18,875 bases of DNA from Escherichia coli (lineage in GTDB: Bacteria; Pseudomonadota; Gammaproteobacteria; Enterobacterales; Enterobacteriaceae), in the NCBI RefSeq assembly GCF_003334335.1, contig NZ_QOWQ01000056.1. One strand, 5' to 3'. The position numbers were made by a program, and so were the translations under genes. The notes beneath the pieces were generated by a model. It had not been told where the DNA came from. It saw only the letters and a list, made by a program, of their open reading frames with translations, and ran no database searches. Position 1 is the stretch's first letter, and every line of letters begins with the position of its first letter. Positions 869-10,907 of the stretch are shown piece by piece.

Positions 869-1339
869 ATGAGTTACTATATGAAAATATACTGGACAAG
901 AAAAAACATTCCTGAACTTTCAGCACTTCCACCTTCATTAAGAAAGAAAAATTTTACTGACGCATATAATGCTGCATCTTCCCATATCGAATACTGGATA
1001 GGTGCTGGCGTCTCATTTATCTCGATGATGATTTTATTCAAAGTATATGACTTTCTTTTACCCGCCCAAGATACTTTCCCGGGTGATATCATAAGAAGTT
1101 TATGTGTTGTGTGTCCATCCATATTAATCTGGTTTCAGTTTTCGGTATATGTCATGAGGAAATATTACAGACATATTCTGGAACGAGGTAAGGAAACCGA
1201 AACCATTTCAGAAAGGTTGATACGTGAGGCTGATACACGAGAATATGAACTATGGCGTCCGGCCCATCGCTTTTTCTCCATTATTTTTCTCATTATTCTA
1301 TTAGTTTGCATTCATTCACTGATAACAACTATAAAATAA
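869..1339 (+). CDS. Putative polytopic membrane protein (156 aa), function unknown; possible microcin immunity or accessory protein
   Basis: ATG start at 869 (second ATG at 881); hydrophobic segments (WIGAGVSFISMMILF, LCVVCPSILIWFQFSVYV, FFSIIFLIILLVCIHSLI); very AT-rich like neighbouring microcin genes; co-directional and 100 bp upstream of the CPBP gene. No obvious Shine-Dalgarno. Confidence 0.45.
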   Translation: MSYYMKIYWTRKNIPELSALPPSLRKKNFTDAYNAASSHIEYWIGAGVSFISMMILFKVYDFLLPAQDTFPGDIIRSLCVVCPSILIWFQFSVYVMRKYYRHILERGKETETISERLIREADTREYELWRPAHRFFSIIFLIILLVCIHSLITTIK

Positions 1340-3120: not shown

Positions 3121-5223
3121 CTAATTTGTAATTCTAAAAATCCGATCAACTGTTCTTAAAGTTGTCTCTCTATGTGCAATAATCACCCGGGTGATATTCA
3201 TCTTTTTTATAGCAGCATTCACGAAACGTTCACTTTCTGTATCAAGAGAACTTGTAGCCTCATCCATAAATAATATTCCAGGTTTCCGGTATAAAGCTCG
3301 GGCAATGAATATACGCTGTTTTTGACCGCCGGAAAGACCTTCCCCCAGTTCACCTATTAACGTTTCATACCCCATTGGCATTTTCATTATCACATCATGA
3401 ATATGACTTGCTCTGGCACATTCTGTCATCCATTCGTCGTCTGTTTCTTCTGCAAACCCACAGATATTTTCACGAATTGATCCTGAAAATAGCCGGTCGT
3501 CCTGCATAACACAGGCTATCATACGGTGATAATTATTTATTCCAAGTTGACGTATATCCGTGCCATTAACCAGTACTTTTCCACTATCTGGTTCAAACAG
3601 TCCACATAATACTTTCATTAATGTGGTTTTTCCGGCACCGGAGGCACCAGTTATAGCCACACTTTCTCCCGGAGCCACAGACAAATTCAGACCACTGAAT
3701 ACCTGTGCTGACTGGCTGTCATACCGGTAGCTTAAATCAGTGGTTTCCAGTGAAACCGGGCTCATGTCAGCAACGATTTCAATTTCCGGTTTCTTTTCTT
3801 CCTTTTCATGTAGTGCAATATCTGCAATGCGCTCATTATGCAGACTCATTATTCTCAGTTGAAGAAGAAAACTGGTCAGCGAAGCAACCCGATCCGAAAA
3901 CTGCCCACGAAAAGAACCAAATGCCACAAACATCCCTATTGTCATCTGATTATCGATCACAAGGCTTGCACCCAGCCATAAAATCGCCACCTGATCACAG
4001 GCGGCAACAAAAGTATTTATCCCCCCGAAGAGCAAATCCATCCTGGTTAACTTAATACCTGAATTGATCGCATCTATTTTCAGGTTAAGCCAGTGTGTTC
4101 CCCGAATCCCAGCCATACCCTGGATTTTTACCGTGGCAATACCATACAGGCTTTCCATAAAATAGGAGCTGGCCCGGGCCCCCCTGACAAGAGTTTCTTC
4201 CGATATTTGCCGGTAATAGCCGTATGTCACCAGACGAATAAGAACGTAAACCATGGTAAAACCGAGCACTATCCAGGTAAGATATCCTCCATATAACAGC
4301 ATCATCACAAAAACACCCACAACCATAATACTGTCCATGATTGCCCCAACAACACAGGTGGTAAAGGTGGCCCTCAAAGTGTCAAGGGAGCCAAAACGCG
4401 ACTGGATATCACCTAATTTACGGCGTTCAAAAAACGCCAGCGGCAGTCTGAGAAGATGGTTAAACAGACCCGACTGCCACTGTATATTGATGAGCGTGCT
4501 CATAACCAGTGAGGACCATGCACGCAGCATACTCACCGCGGCCCTGAGCAATATAAAGAACATCAGGCCAGCAGAAATAAGCGTCAGCAGCCCTCTGTCC
4601 CCCGCCGGAATCGCATGATCCATAACCAGCTGAGTTCCCACCGGCATTACCAGATTGATTGCTTCAATTACAACTGACAGACAGAAAATTTTCGCCAGTG
4701 TTCTTTTAATACCGTAAATACTGTTAATCAGTGAACGGAGACTTATGCGGGTCTGCTGGGTTTCCGCCAGGAATTCACTTCCGGGCCAGACCTCAAGTGC
4801 AATGCCCGTAAAATACCGGCTCATTTCCTCCCGACCGAGATATCTTCTGCCTCTGGCCGGATCATGCAGTACATAACGGTTACGCTTTACGCTGACCAGC
4901 ACGACGAAGTGACTGAAATCCCAGTGGAGAATACACGGCATTTTGAGGGCACCAAGTTCATCCAGCTCCAGTGAAAGAGCCCGGGTGACCATCCCCAGCT
5001 GCTCCGCTATTCCATTGATTCCTGCAAGGTTTGCTCCACGGGCCGAGAGATTAAACTTCCGGCGAAGAGATATCAGGTCAATATTCTTACCAAAATGACC
5101 GCATATCATTGCCAGGCAGGCCAGTCCACATTCAGCGGTCTCCGTCTGATGAATAACCGGAACACGACGTCGCCAGCGCATATCAAGCTGATTTATAATT
5201 TGTCTGAAATTCCCGTTAGTCAT
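3121..5223 (-). CDS. mchF: Microcin export ABC transporter with N-terminal C39 peptidase domain (CvaB/MchF family)
   Basis: About 700 aa. C39 catalytic Cys context [14 protein letters not shown]; Walker [10 protein letters not shown]; ABC signature LSGGQKQR; Walker [10 protein letters not shown]. The track ORF (to 5241) begins at GTG; the ATG at 5223 ([10 protein letters not shown]) has AGGA 9 nt upstream and overlaps the mchE stop by 8 nt, as in cvaA/cvaB. Confidence 0.93.
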
Positions 5224-7120: not shown

Positions 7121-8671
7121 TTACACTGTGTTTCTTATCGGTTCAAGATATCCAAATGCATCTCTGGAAAACTTAAGCATAAAATTTTTCATATCAGAAA
7201 TTGCTTCTTGTAAAAAAAGGGGATCATCGCCATGATTATCCAGCAGGATGGCAATTTTTTCGCACATATTCTCTTTCCTCAGCTCTTCCCTGGGTTGCAG
7301 CCTTTTCATGGTATGATGTTCAATTTCTTTCAGGAGTAATGAGGCATTTATCTGACGTCTGGTACTGCCTTGCGTCAGCCAGTGGATGGCCTGGGAAAAA
7401 CACTGTTGTGCAACGGTGAAATAAACATCATTCTTGATGCTACTATTCAGTGCCTGCTTTTGATTATGCCTATGATGGATTAGCGTCACAACCAACTTTT
7501 GCAATGGTGAACCATCCTGATTGACAATATCTTGGGCATGTGATTTCTCGCAGTATTGATTGAGTAATGCAACAAAACTGTTAACCAGTTCTTTCAATAT
7601 ATCAGGTATCTCTTTTTGTGTTATAAATTCTCCAGGAATACCCAACAGTTCTAGATAACAGTAATAACATGCTTCATGAAAAGTTTTCTGAAATATCTCC
7701 TCAACCTTCAAACGGGCTGCAAGAGTGAAGTCAGGGTCAAACATATATTTTCCGATATACAAGCAGAGATCAGACAGCCCTTGCATAAGTACCATCGGTT
7801 CTTTTGCCAGTTCAGCTAATCTTAGTTTATACCCAAAATCAGCTGGGGAATCTCCCGGAAACAGACAACTGAGTCCGCTAAAATCCATTAATCTGCCATC
7901 CATTGCAATATTAGAAGGAGAAGTTGTCAATCTCAGGAAACGTGTTCGACAAAATGCCATTTGCCAGGCCTCACGACGTGCCAGTTCACATAACCCCTCA
8001 ATGCAATAAATCCGGGGATCAGTTCGTGCTTCAGCATCAATTTCTTCCGGTGGTACAGGTAGATATCCTGGCAGCTTGTGGATCACAGATCTAACCCGAC
8101 AGGCATCGTGAATTAACAGACTGGAATACTCCGGTTTTACTTGGAAGTAAGGTGCCCGTTCAAAATGCGCCGGACGAACAACAGGCTCACGTACCAACAG
8201 GGCTCTTCGTGATTTCCTACCGGAGCGCTCAAATGCCTTTTCAGTATAGAGATCTGTAAGTAAAACCGCCCGAACCCGCACAGCACTATAAGGTAATATT
8301 TGAGCCAGTACTTCTCCCCACAAAGCCTCATATATTGCATGAACAGCGCCGAGTGCACCATTAGAATGACGTTCGTCAGTACCTTCGCCAACCAACGGAT
8401 TACTTCCTATTCCTTTAACCTGGTAGTTACCATCAAACCCACAACGTGCACCACCTCCATTACGCTGAATACCACTGCCACCATAGCGCTCTGCATGGAA
8501 CACTTTGGCAGAAGCTGTACTGCCAGGATCGATAATATAACTGCAGGCATTTTGCAGCTCGTCTGGATTTCTGACATCCTCTGCACACCAGATTAATGAG
8601 GCCTTGATCTGCCTGGCAGTGAAAGGCACCAGGTTTTCATTCAGTTCAGAAAGTGAACACTGATGACTCAT
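7121..8671 (-). CDS. mchC: MchC/MceJ-like microcin maturation protein, 516 aa
   Basis: ATG start at 8671 (MSHQCSLSELNENLV...), GGAG about 12 nt upstream; 516 aa; immediately downstream of mchB on the same strand and upstream of mchD. Confidence 0.85.
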   Translation of the reverse strand: MSHQCSLSELNENLVPFTARQIKASLIWCAEDVRNPDELQNACSYIIDPGSTASAKVFHAERYGGSGIQRNGGGARCGFDGNYQVKGIGSNPLVGEGTDERHSNGALGAVHAIYEALWGEVLAQILPYSAVRVRAVLLTDLYTEKAFERSGRKSRRALLVREPVVRPAHFERAPYFQVKPEYSSLLIHDACRVRSVIHKLPGYLPVPPEEIDAEARTDPRIYCIEGLCELARREAWQMAFCRTRFLRLTTSPSNIAMDGRLMDFSGLSCLFPGDSPADFGYKLRLAELAKEPMVLMQGLSDLCLYIGKYMFDPDFTLAARLKVEEIFQKTFHEACYYCYLELLGIPGEFITQKEIPDILKELVNSFVALLNQYCEKSHAQDIVNQDGSPLQKLVVTLIHHRHNQKQALNSSIKNDVYFTVAQQCFSQAIHWLTQGSTRRQINASLLLKEIEHHTMKRLQPREELRKENMCEKIAILLDNHGDDPLFLQEAISDMKNFMLKFSRDAFGYLEPIRNTV

Positions 8672-8942: not shown

Positions 8943-9170
8943 TTAGCTACCGCCACCAGCAGAAGAACTGGCACTACCACTTCCCACGGTCGAGCCAATT
9001 GCTGTTGTCAAACCGGCAGATACGGCTCCAACTACAACCCCAAGTGGACCACCAGGTATTCCGGCGAGAGCTCCAACAATAGCTGCAGCACCTGCAGCAT
9101 TAGCTGAAGTCGCTGGCGCACCTCCCGCCCCGGAAATATATCTTAACTGTGATTCTGTTATTTCTCGCAT
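8943..9170 (-). CDS. mchB: Microcin H47 precursor (75 aa; 15-aa double-glycine-type leader, Gly/Ala-rich core, Ser-rich C-terminal tail)
   Basis: Translation MREITESQLRYISGAGGAPATSANAAGAAAIVGALAGIPGGPLGVVVGAVSAGLTTAIGSTVGSGSASSSAGGGS matches the microcin H47 precursor as I remember it (length, leader, SASSSAGGGS tail). ATG at 9170. Confidence 0.95.
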   Translation of the reverse strand: MREITESQLRYISGAGGAPATSANAAGAAAIVGALAGIPGGPLGVVVGAVSAGLTTAIGSTVGSGSASSSAGGGS

Positions 9171-9197: not shown

Positions 9198-9407
9198 TTA
9201 ACTTCCGTTTTTCCAGTCTGACCAGACCAGAATCCTTCGAATCCCATGAATCAGCTCAATAAAACCAAGAAATATTATAAAGCTTAGAAAAACGTCAACA
9301 TAAGAATTCCCTTCGCCAACAATCCGAAGGGATGAAAGTGAAACCAATAAGATAGTAATAGGTAAACTGAATATAGCCGTCAATTGGGACAGTTTTTTAT
9401 AACTCAT
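9198..9407 (-). CDS. mchI: Microcin H47 immunity protein (69 aa, membrane peptide)
   Basis: 69-aa hydrophobic peptide (two predicted TM helices) directly upstream of and co-directional with mchB; ATG at 9407. Size and position match MchI. Confidence 0.88.
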   Translation of the reverse strand: MSYKKLSQLTAIFSLPITILLVSLSSLRIVGEGNSYVDVFLSFIIFLGFIELIHGIRRILVWSDWKNGS

Positions 9408-9475
9408 TAATCCCTACCTGTTGCTTTATTTTCATTATGAAAAGTTACCAAATCTTAGCACCTCAGTCAGGAGAG

Positions 9476-9595
9476 TCAGGTCATCGATAAAGAATATTCC
9501 AGTAGAGTGGCGCTCATGATCAAAGATAACAGCAAAGTTGATGACAGTGCTGACCGACTGTCATTTACAGAAACCCTGTTTGTAGCAAATTCCAT
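9476..9595 (-). CDS. mchX: Small 39-aa ORF upstream of mchI (MchX-like regulatory peptide)
   Basis: Not in the track (below 60 aa); found by hand: ATG at 9595 to TGA at 9476-9478, translation MEFATNRVSVNDSRSALSSTLLLSLIMSATLLEYSLSMT (39 aa). Position and length match mchX of the H47 system; I cannot confirm the sequence from memory. Confidence 0.55.
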   Translation of the reverse strand: MEFATNRVSVNDSRSALSSTLLLSLIMSATLLEYSLSMT

Positions 9596-9626
9596 CTTAC
9601 CTGACCTCACCCAGACAAAGACAAAA

Positions 9627-9645
9627 GAGAATGATTGTTATTTAC
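9627..9645. promoter_or_regulatory. Weak Fur-box-like site in the mchX / mchS4 divergent promoter region
   Basis: gagaatgattgttatttac matches the 19-bp Fur consensus at 13/19; it sits about 30-50 bp upstream of the mchX start on the minus strand. Confidence 0.3.
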
Positions 9646-9818
9646 TTTTCAAAAAAAGTGTCATATTGTCCATATAAAGTCAAGAGGTATTTTACGTTAT
9701 GTCACTGATGCAATTGTTAGTCAGGATCTCATGGTTGTCGCTCATGTATAACCTGAGACTTGAACGCACACTAATAGCGCTGACGGTCATACATCGGGAA
9801 ATGTGAGGAGGCATAAGA

Positions 9819-10064
9819 ATGAATTGTGATAATAATCACAGAAATGAAGAATTCATTGTTACCTTTGATAAAGGCAACAAGCAAGACAATTCAAGACGAA
9901 AACACGATAATTTTCCTATAGAGGTAGAATCCTCCGTAGAGCAGGAGACACACTGTATCACAAATAATAAGTCAGCTTCCGGTATAGTAACACATGGCTA
10001 TGATGCCGATTATATTTGTGGTTGTGGTGAAATTATGTGTCCTGGTTGCGGTCATGACCTATAA
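9819..10064 (+). CDS. mchS4: Small 81-aa protein with C-terminal Cys cluster (CxC-x4-CxxC), MchS4-like by position
   Basis: ATG at 9819 with SD gaggagg (9805-9811). C-terminus YICGCGEIMCPGCGHDL. Position between mchX and mchS3 matches the H47 island gene order as I recall it. Confidence 0.55.
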   Translation: MNCDNNHRNEEFIVTFDKGNKQDNSRRKHDNFPIEVESSVEQETHCITNNKSASGIVTHGYDADYICGCGEIMCPGCGHDL

Positions 10065-10219: not shown

Positions 10220-10654
10220 ATGTATCTTACGAAAAAGATTATAATAAGTATGATGTTTATATTACCATCTGCTGCATTTTCATCAGATCCACCTCCCCTT
10301 CAACAATCGTTAGAAAAAACAACCTATTTTTCTATAGGTATGAATGGGTTTATAGGCTATCAGAGCGAAGGGGAAAAATTATACACACACATTCTTACAT
10401 TAGATAATCCCGAAGAGATATTTAAAAATATAATAGAAAATAGAAAGTCAACTAAGGAGTCTAAAATTTATGCTGCTTGTGGGCTATATTATTTAAACGT
10501 AGAAAATATAGAGTCATTGTTTAATGAAAATGATAAACAAGAATATATGTCTGTCTTAAGAGGGGATATTTTAACAAAAATAAAACTGAATGATATTCTG
10601 AATTCTGTGATAATAAATGGTTGCAACACCAAATTAATATCTGAACATAAATGA
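10220..10654 (+). CDS. mchS3: Putative immunity protein for the downstream microcin (144 aa, N-terminal signal/anchor), MchS3-like
   Basis: ATG at 10220 with SD aaagggga upstream; N-terminal hydrophobic segment KKIIISMMFILPSAAFSS; ends 16 bp before the microcin precursor gene, the classic immunity-then-toxin arrangement. Confidence 0.65.
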   Translation: MYLTKKIIISMMFILPSAAFSSDPPPLQQSLEKTTYFSIGMNGFIGYQSEGEKLYTHILTLDNPEEIFKNIIENRKSTKESKIYAACGLYYLNVENIESLFNENDKQEYMSVLRGDILTKIKLNDILNSVIINGCNTKLISEHK

Positions 10655-10670: not shown

Positions 10671-10907
10671 ATGAGAGAAATATCAGATCACATGCTTGAT
10701 TTCGTGAAAGGAGGGATGAATCTTAATGGATTACCTAGTTCTACTAATGTAATAGATCTACGAGGAAAAGATATGGGAACATATATTGATGCTAATGGAA
10801 CATGCTGGGCTCCGGGTACTCCATCCATCATCATGTATCCGGGGGGAAGTGGACCTTCTTATAGTATGAGTAGTTCCACATCCAGCGTAAACAGCGGCAC
10901 ATCATAA
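10671..10907 (+). CDS. mchS2: Second siderophore-microcin-type precursor (78 aa; leader MREISDHMLDFVKGG, Ser-rich tail), microcin I47-like
   Basis: ATG at 10671 with SD aggagg (10657-10662). 15-aa leader ending GG, 63-aa core with one Cys, C-terminal SMSSSTSSVNSGTS. Position next to mchS3 and mchS1 matches the H47 island. Confidence 0.8.
   Translation: MREISDHMLDFVKGGMNLNGLPSSTNVIDLRGKDMGTYIDANGTCWAPGTPSIIMYPGGSGPSYSMSSSTSSVNSGTS

Follow-up and report, generated by a model that had tools for sequence, protein, structure and literature searches.

The divergent mchX/mchS4 region of the Escherichia coli microcin H47 island: a probable Fur-repressed mchX promoter and a small reading frame that looks like a product of chance

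Introduction

What controls the two genes that diverge from the short interval between mchX and mchS4, and does this interval encode a small peptide of its own? We addressed this question for positions 9596-9818 of a stretch of E. coli DNA of 18,875 nucleotides (the window), which comprises a complete microcin H47/I47 genomic island and in which the interval forms the divergent mchX/mchS4 intergenic region. A sequence-only reading had proposed a weak Fur-like site serving iron-responsive control of mchX-mchI-mchB, and possibly a small open reading frame coupled to the translation of mchS4. We assign a probability of about 0.88 to the reading that the core of the interval is a Fur-repressed sigma-70 promoter of mchX and that the small frame arose by chance.

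On the minus strand, mchX (9476-9595, 39 codons, ATG at 9595) opens the mchX-mchI-mchB(-mchCDEF) unit and is followed by mchI (9198-9407), mchB (8943-9170) and mchC (7121-8671), and then by mchD, mchE and mchF. The plus strand carries mchS4 (9819-10064, 81 codons; placed, like mchX, from the listing of open reading frames), mchS3/mciI (10220-10654) and the MccI47 precursor gene (10671-10907), with esterase and glycosyltransferase genes farther along. A 701-bp segment around the site is present at 97-100% identity in 292 of 5,426 complete E. coli genomes, on the chromosome in every one, and both mchX and mchS4 are intact in all 11 E. coli alleles that we compared, namely the window and ten others chosen across the identity range. 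A search with the 44-aa form of MchX returned one near-identical match, and a repeat search of 9560-9840 gave only trivial matches of 9-10 nt. PGAP calls neither mchX nor any 35-codon frame, including in a 100%-identical RefSeq genome; RefSeq/PGAP likewise leaves the MccI47 precursor gene uncalled, and mchS4 is called by PGAP in some genomes only, as a hypothetical protein.

Results

The 19-mer at 9627-9645, gagaatgattgttatttac, matches the 19-bp Fur consensus GATAATGATAATCATTATC at 13 of 19 positions on the plus strand and, in the mchX-sense reading GTAAATAACAATCATTCTC, at 14 of 19. We list it as the Fur box (operator) of the mchX promoter, with AATCATT (9631-9637) as its core and with no strand assigned. 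It lies 32-50 bp upstream of the mchX ATG, and the sequence, the 13/19 match and the distance of about 30-50 bp from the 39-codon frame that had been given for it are all correct. The match had also been described as weak, and we agree: at the same base composition, a match of at least 13/19 is expected in about 6% of random 223-nt sequences, and the window as a whole holds 17 such matches versus 5.6 expected. On its score alone the match is within chance, and the reality of the site rests on external and comparative evidence. Its score of 13-14/19 equals or exceeds that of the ChIP-verified sites at fepA-fes and exbB (12-13/19).

The external evidence comes from strain CFT073, in which Fur ChIP-seq yielded a summit of height 625 at 1176371, assigned to mchB and c1226 (Banerjee et al. 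2020, PMC7157518, Table S5A). This coordinate of NC_004431 maps to window position 9632, inside the Fur box, and the 81 bp of NC_004431 around it are 100% identical to window 9592-9672. ChIP-seq resolves tens of base pairs, and the summit by itself cannot single out one 19-mer; within 80 bp on either side, the best Fur-like 19-mer is the one at 9627-9645, its centre 4 nt from the summit, and the next candidates score at most 11/19 and overlap it. The peak height is comparable to those reported for exbB (676) and feoA (751) (PMC7157518). As controls, the summits at fepA-fes and exbB fell 3-21 nt from Fur-like sites, namely those scoring 12-13/19. A third control, the c1249/iroN summit at 1198978, lies about 800 bp inside the iroN coding sequence with no Fur-like site nearby (NC_004431 1198900-1199060); this entry is possibly a coordinate error, and it seems that not every coordinate in the table is reliable.

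Expression data point the same way. RNA-seq of a fur mutant relative to the wild type showed mchB, mchC and mchD up 12.1-, 11.3- and 10.6-fold, independently of RyhB, and a 10- to 12-fold rise across mchB-F (PMC7157518), and mchX is described elsewhere as Fur-repressed (PMC6071977). A functional Fur box upstream of mchX is also stated in several papers, PMC2785843 among them, in passages that cite Patzer et al. (2003). Iron and Fur control of mchX-mchI-mchB through this site, as the sequence-only reading had suspected, is supported by the summit on the box and by the derepression in the fur mutant, and had already been published.

Two other Fur-like stretches of the island deserve mention. A stronger cluster at 753-783, GATAATGATTATCTCTATC, scores 16/19 and is overlapped by two 14/19 matches; some 100 bp downstream of it comes a frame for a hypothetical membrane protein (881-1339, plus strand), which is followed by a CPBP protease gene (1439-2125). 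The cluster is 98.8% identical to CFT073 DNA with a Fur ChIP-seq summit at 1184948 (c1234/c1235, height 382), and it represents a second Fur-bound promoter of the island, located before genes without known function. Inside the 3' part of mchF, at 3373-3391, a Fur-like site scores 12/19 (CATTGGCATTTTCATTATC), and, provided that the mchX-to-mchF stretches of the window and CFT073 are collinear, a weak Fur ChIP peak listed for mchF in CFT073 (1182622, height 18) would fall at about window position 3381.

The comparative evidence was obtained from plasmids. A distant blastn search of the region against plasmids matched Salmonella plasmids only, at 70.5% identity over window 9474-9649. In one of these, pRM11060-2, an MchC homolog directly follows a mceX-like gene, the order also seen in the microcin E492 cluster, and within the 70.5%-identical match a block of 24 nt that contains the Fur box (window 9626-9649, AGAGAATGATTGTTATTTACTTTT) is identical at all 24 positions. 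Of the primers used in the microcin E492 study, FurX matches pRM11060-2 exactly and PEX with one mismatch; the 233-bp fragment that they bracket is equivalent to the 237-bp mceX fragment that was positive in Fur titration in vivo (Marcoleta et al. 2018, PMC6071977), with pRM11060-2 serving as a proxy for Klebsiella pneumoniae RYC492 that differs in the first mceX codons. The same study places a Fur box with 74% identity to the consensus, which corresponds to 14/19, between the -10 element and the ATG of mceX, and the mceX transcription start at an A 42 bp upstream of the ATG (PMC6071977). Salmonella plasmids also provided two MchC-linked loci that are more distant, and their mceX-like promoters carry different and stronger Fur boxes, of 15/19, at the same position, that is, at the same offset from TTGACTT...TATG. 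An MchC locus from Pantoea was dropped as a comparator, with neither a mchX-like promoter nor a Fur box upstream.

Aligning the four promoters showed four invariant elements: TTGACTT, a TATG located 15 nt downstream of TTGACT, AAT-A-AATCATT within the Fur box, and a Shine-Dalgarno-like GT-AGG. The ATG is kept in three of the four loci, while pRM11060-2 reads ATA. Among the 11 E. coli alleles, 9603-9684 contains no substitution, compared to 7-8% variable sites in the flanks, and the sole variation within it is a length polymorphism of an A/T run at 9650-9651. In these comparisons (pRM11060-2, the four promoters and the E. coli alleles), conservation of the Fur box exceeds that of its surroundings.

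Some features of these plasmid loci fall outside the promoter comparison. The mceX-like gene of pRM11060-2 (3990-4112 of the segment retrieved), with ATA at the position of the ATG start of E. coli and K. pneumoniae, shows no in-frame ATG, GTG or TTG frame of at least 30 codons, and may be decaying or use an unusual start; its Fur box and promoter are perfectly kept. On another Salmonella plasmid, pSA20021456.1, a Gly-rich frame of 85 aa (591-848 of the segment retrieved), called as a hypothetical protein, runs divergently from the mceX-like promoter; it has a Ser-rich C-terminus (MRALTDNEVFSVYGADRG...SSPSNGS) and resembles a class IIb siderophore-microcin precursor.

Could the 19-mer nonetheless be a chance AT-rich match, with Fur binding some other sequence nearby in the intergenic region? 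Its modest score, reached by chance at the rate given above, and the resolution of ChIP-seq leave some room for this, but the 19-mer is the best match close to the summit and belongs to the only block that the E. coli and E492-type promoters share without a mismatch, and two other promoters have independent Fur boxes at the corresponding position. We regard this alternative as very unlikely.

We next place the promoter elements of mchX, whose positions are predicted from the four-way alignment and the homology to mceX. All lie on the minus strand. The predicted -35 element is TTGACT (9678-9683), which is part of the invariant TTGACTT. A spacer of 17 nt, ending in the TG at 9663-9662, separates it from a predicted extended -10 element (9655-9663) with a poor hexamer, CACTTT (9660-9655); its TG corresponds to the TATG found at a fixed N15-TG distance from TTGACT in all four promoters. 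Transcription is predicted to start at 9647-9649, as transferred from the mceX start via the alignment, and a Shine-Dalgarno-like GTGAGG (9605-9610), the local form of GT-AGG, precedes the ATG by 9 nt. In the four homologous promoters the Fur box lies 30-40 nt downstream of TTGACT, and by homology to mceX it would begin 2-4 nt past the predicted start. A standard promoter scan at a threshold of 9/12 returned no site in 9596-9818 and did not pick up the proposed -10 element, and a lenient scan returned many weak candidates that could not be ranked. The literature searched contained no mapped mchX start site in E. coli, and a search for start-site or small-protein data sets from Nissle gave nothing usable.

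Two observations concern the A/T run in this promoter. Between the predicted -10 element and the predicted start, the run at 9650-9657 is one base shorter or longer in three of the ten other alleles, and the 61-mer that covers it differs in 49 of 293 records, a variation that could tune promoter strength. Strain 537-20 carries an annotated 78-aa hypothetical protein that runs antisense to mchX and spans the Fur box (417-653 of its segment, about window 9516-9752, plus strand); this call apparently stems from a one-base change in the length of the A run that fuses two chance frames, and is probably an annotation artefact.

We then examined the small frame upstream of mchS4. As had been noted, an ATG at 9699 on the plus strand opens a 35-codon frame that ends at 9806 in the ribosome-binding region of mchS4, and these coordinates are confirmed. 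Its stop codon TGA (9804-9806) directly adjoins GGAGG (9807-9811, plus strand), the Shine-Dalgarno sequence of mchS4, which lies 7 nt before the ATG at 9819 and is invariant in the 11 alleles. This arrangement is what a translated leader peptide would show if its termination at the mchS4 Shine-Dalgarno sequence coupled or modulated mchS4 translation, and about 80% of the E. coli genomes with the island keep the frame intact; an AAGAGG precedes it at 9682-9687. The allele comparison speaks against such a role. In five of the ten other alleles, including those of ATCC 8739 and an ST131 isolate, codon 2 is changed from TCA to TAA (A at position 9703). Of 293 E. coli records, 46 or more contain the exact TAA-bearing 61-mer (strain 042 among the examples listed), and 58 of 292 records differ from the intact allele in the codon-2 segment; the stop is present in 16-20% of island-carrying genomes, while none of the sampled alleles has a disrupted mchS4. 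Of the nine variable sites within the 108 nt of the frame, seven are nonsynonymous or create a stop and two are synonymous, with no sign of purifying selection, and at 8% they are four times denser than in mchS4 (2%). The AAGAGG, which is the only Shine-Dalgarno-like sequence, is poorly spaced, with 11 nt between it and the ATG, and one allele carries an altered form of it. An ATG frame of at least 35 codons is found by chance in random sequence of the same composition in 15% of cases on the plus strand and in 28% on either strand. Neither did the RNA level lend support to a leader: the fold of 9696-9840, which spans the mchS4 leader, the frame and the ribosome-binding site, is not unusually stable (z = -1.5), and an Rfam scan of the whole window at the gathering threshold matched no family.

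A truncated frame surviving from the second ATG (9708) in the TAA alleles was rejected as well, for it has no Shine-Dalgarno sequence and shows the same neutral substitution pattern. MchS4 has no detectable homologs outside E. coli (a word-indexed search, and HMMER against 1.84 billion representative proteins, matched near-identical E. coli proteins only), and therefore no deeper comparison of the conservation of the frame was available; the literature searched contained no Ribo-seq or proteomic data for the locus. Given the codon-2 stops, the substitution pattern, the Shine-Dalgarno spacing, the lack of an Rfam match and a leader that is not unusually structured, these 35 codons upstream of mchS4 look like a frame that arose by chance and serves no function by itself. 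A translated leader peptide is very unlikely, and the suggestion of a small upstream frame coupled to mchS4 is not supported, given the codon-2 stops beside an intact mchS4 and the lack of a sign of purifying selection.

Whether the Fur operator also acts on the divergent side is a separate matter. The same operator, perhaps with a weak second site at 9710-9728 that matches the Fur consensus at 12/19, may also repress a divergent mchS4 promoter; this would be an addition to the main explanation rather than a replacement of it, and would gate enterobactin overproduction, which mchS4 is reported to cause (PMC10380612, PMC6071977), by iron together with the microcin. Among the plus-strand candidates of the lenient promoter scan, a -35 element TTTACT (9641-9646) overlaps the Fur box and is paired with a -10 of TG-CATATT or TATTGT, but these candidates score 8-9/12, no better than chance. 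[quoted passage not shown] In the divergent mceE/mceX region of the E492 cluster, boxes on both sides were positive in Fur titration, although boxes with matches in the range of 12/19 (63%) failed Fur titration in that same study (PMC6071977). MceE is said in the literature to resemble MchS4 at the C-terminus, but HMMER found no relation between the two. On balance, we consider a Fur effect on mchS4 possible but rather doubtful. The more specific version, in which the one operator at 9627-9645 gates both divergent promoters, with the mchS4 -35 element (TTTACT) inside the Fur box and mchS4 switched on with mchXIB under iron starvation, strikes us as slightly less probable again; were it true, it would feed forward into microcin maturation by supplying the siderophore moiety that this step requires. 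As for MchS4 itself, the protein ends in a Cys-rich motif, CGCGEIMCPGCGHDL, and position 60 is G in the window and D in all ten other alleles.

Discussion

Overall, the Fur-related part of the earlier proposal is real but already known biology, with a Fur box upstream of mchX reported since Patzer et al. (2003). What our analysis adds is the placement of the operator to the base, a promoter model for mchX built by comparison, and the removal of a spurious small-frame candidate. Fur occupancy and Fur-dependent expression rest on published experiments that we mapped onto the window, and we infer the promoter elements and the start from the homology to mceX.

In the model that we favour, of a Fur-repressed sigma-70 promoter of mchX, RNA polymerase would use the predicted TTGACT (9683-9678), the 17-nt spacer with its TG and the CACTTT hexamer to start transcription at about 9647-9649, and the Fur box (9645-9627) would lie immediately downstream of this start. 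When iron is plentiful, Fe2+-Fur on the box would block transcription of mchX-mchI-mchB and of the downstream mchCDEF. When iron is scarce, Fur would leave, and the genes for the microcin, immunity, maturation and export would be switched on together with enterobactin synthesis. Such iron control of siderophore-microcins accounts for the use of MccH47 and MccM by uropathogenic E. coli and Nissle 1917 in the inflamed gut, where iron is scarce.

The closest known system is mceX-mceJI of microcin E492 in K. pneumoniae RYC492 (PMC6071977), where a small X gene likewise follows TTGACT...TATG. The two promoters are alike in carrying a Fur box, apparently the identical one (14/19, or 74%), between the -10 element (a predicted one for mchX) and the ATG, and in their iron- and Fur-dependent repression, and both face a divergent small gene, mceE in the E492 cluster and mchS4 in this island. 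They differ in what they drive: the X gene of E492 comes first in the maturation operon mceX-mceJ-mceI, whereas here mchX leads the immunity and structural unit mchX-mchI-mchB, with mchCD further downstream. The stretch from TATG to the Fur box also differs, with TGTAAT in the E492-type sequence versus a run of T here, which is 2 nt shorter, and the start site is mapped for mceX, while that of mchX is predicted. The shared intergenic Fur sites of fepA-fes and of the two divergent colicin V operons offer a looser parallel, as they too separate divergent siderophore or bacteriocin units; Fur control is documented there in both directions, and here only in the direction of mchX. Finally, the colicin G/H/X (MccH47/MccM) determinants (Patzer et al. 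2003) and CFT073 (PMC2785843; PMC7157518) present the same locus under the same regulator, and, compared at the level of the locus, their mchX Fur box agrees with the site described here in everything of substance.
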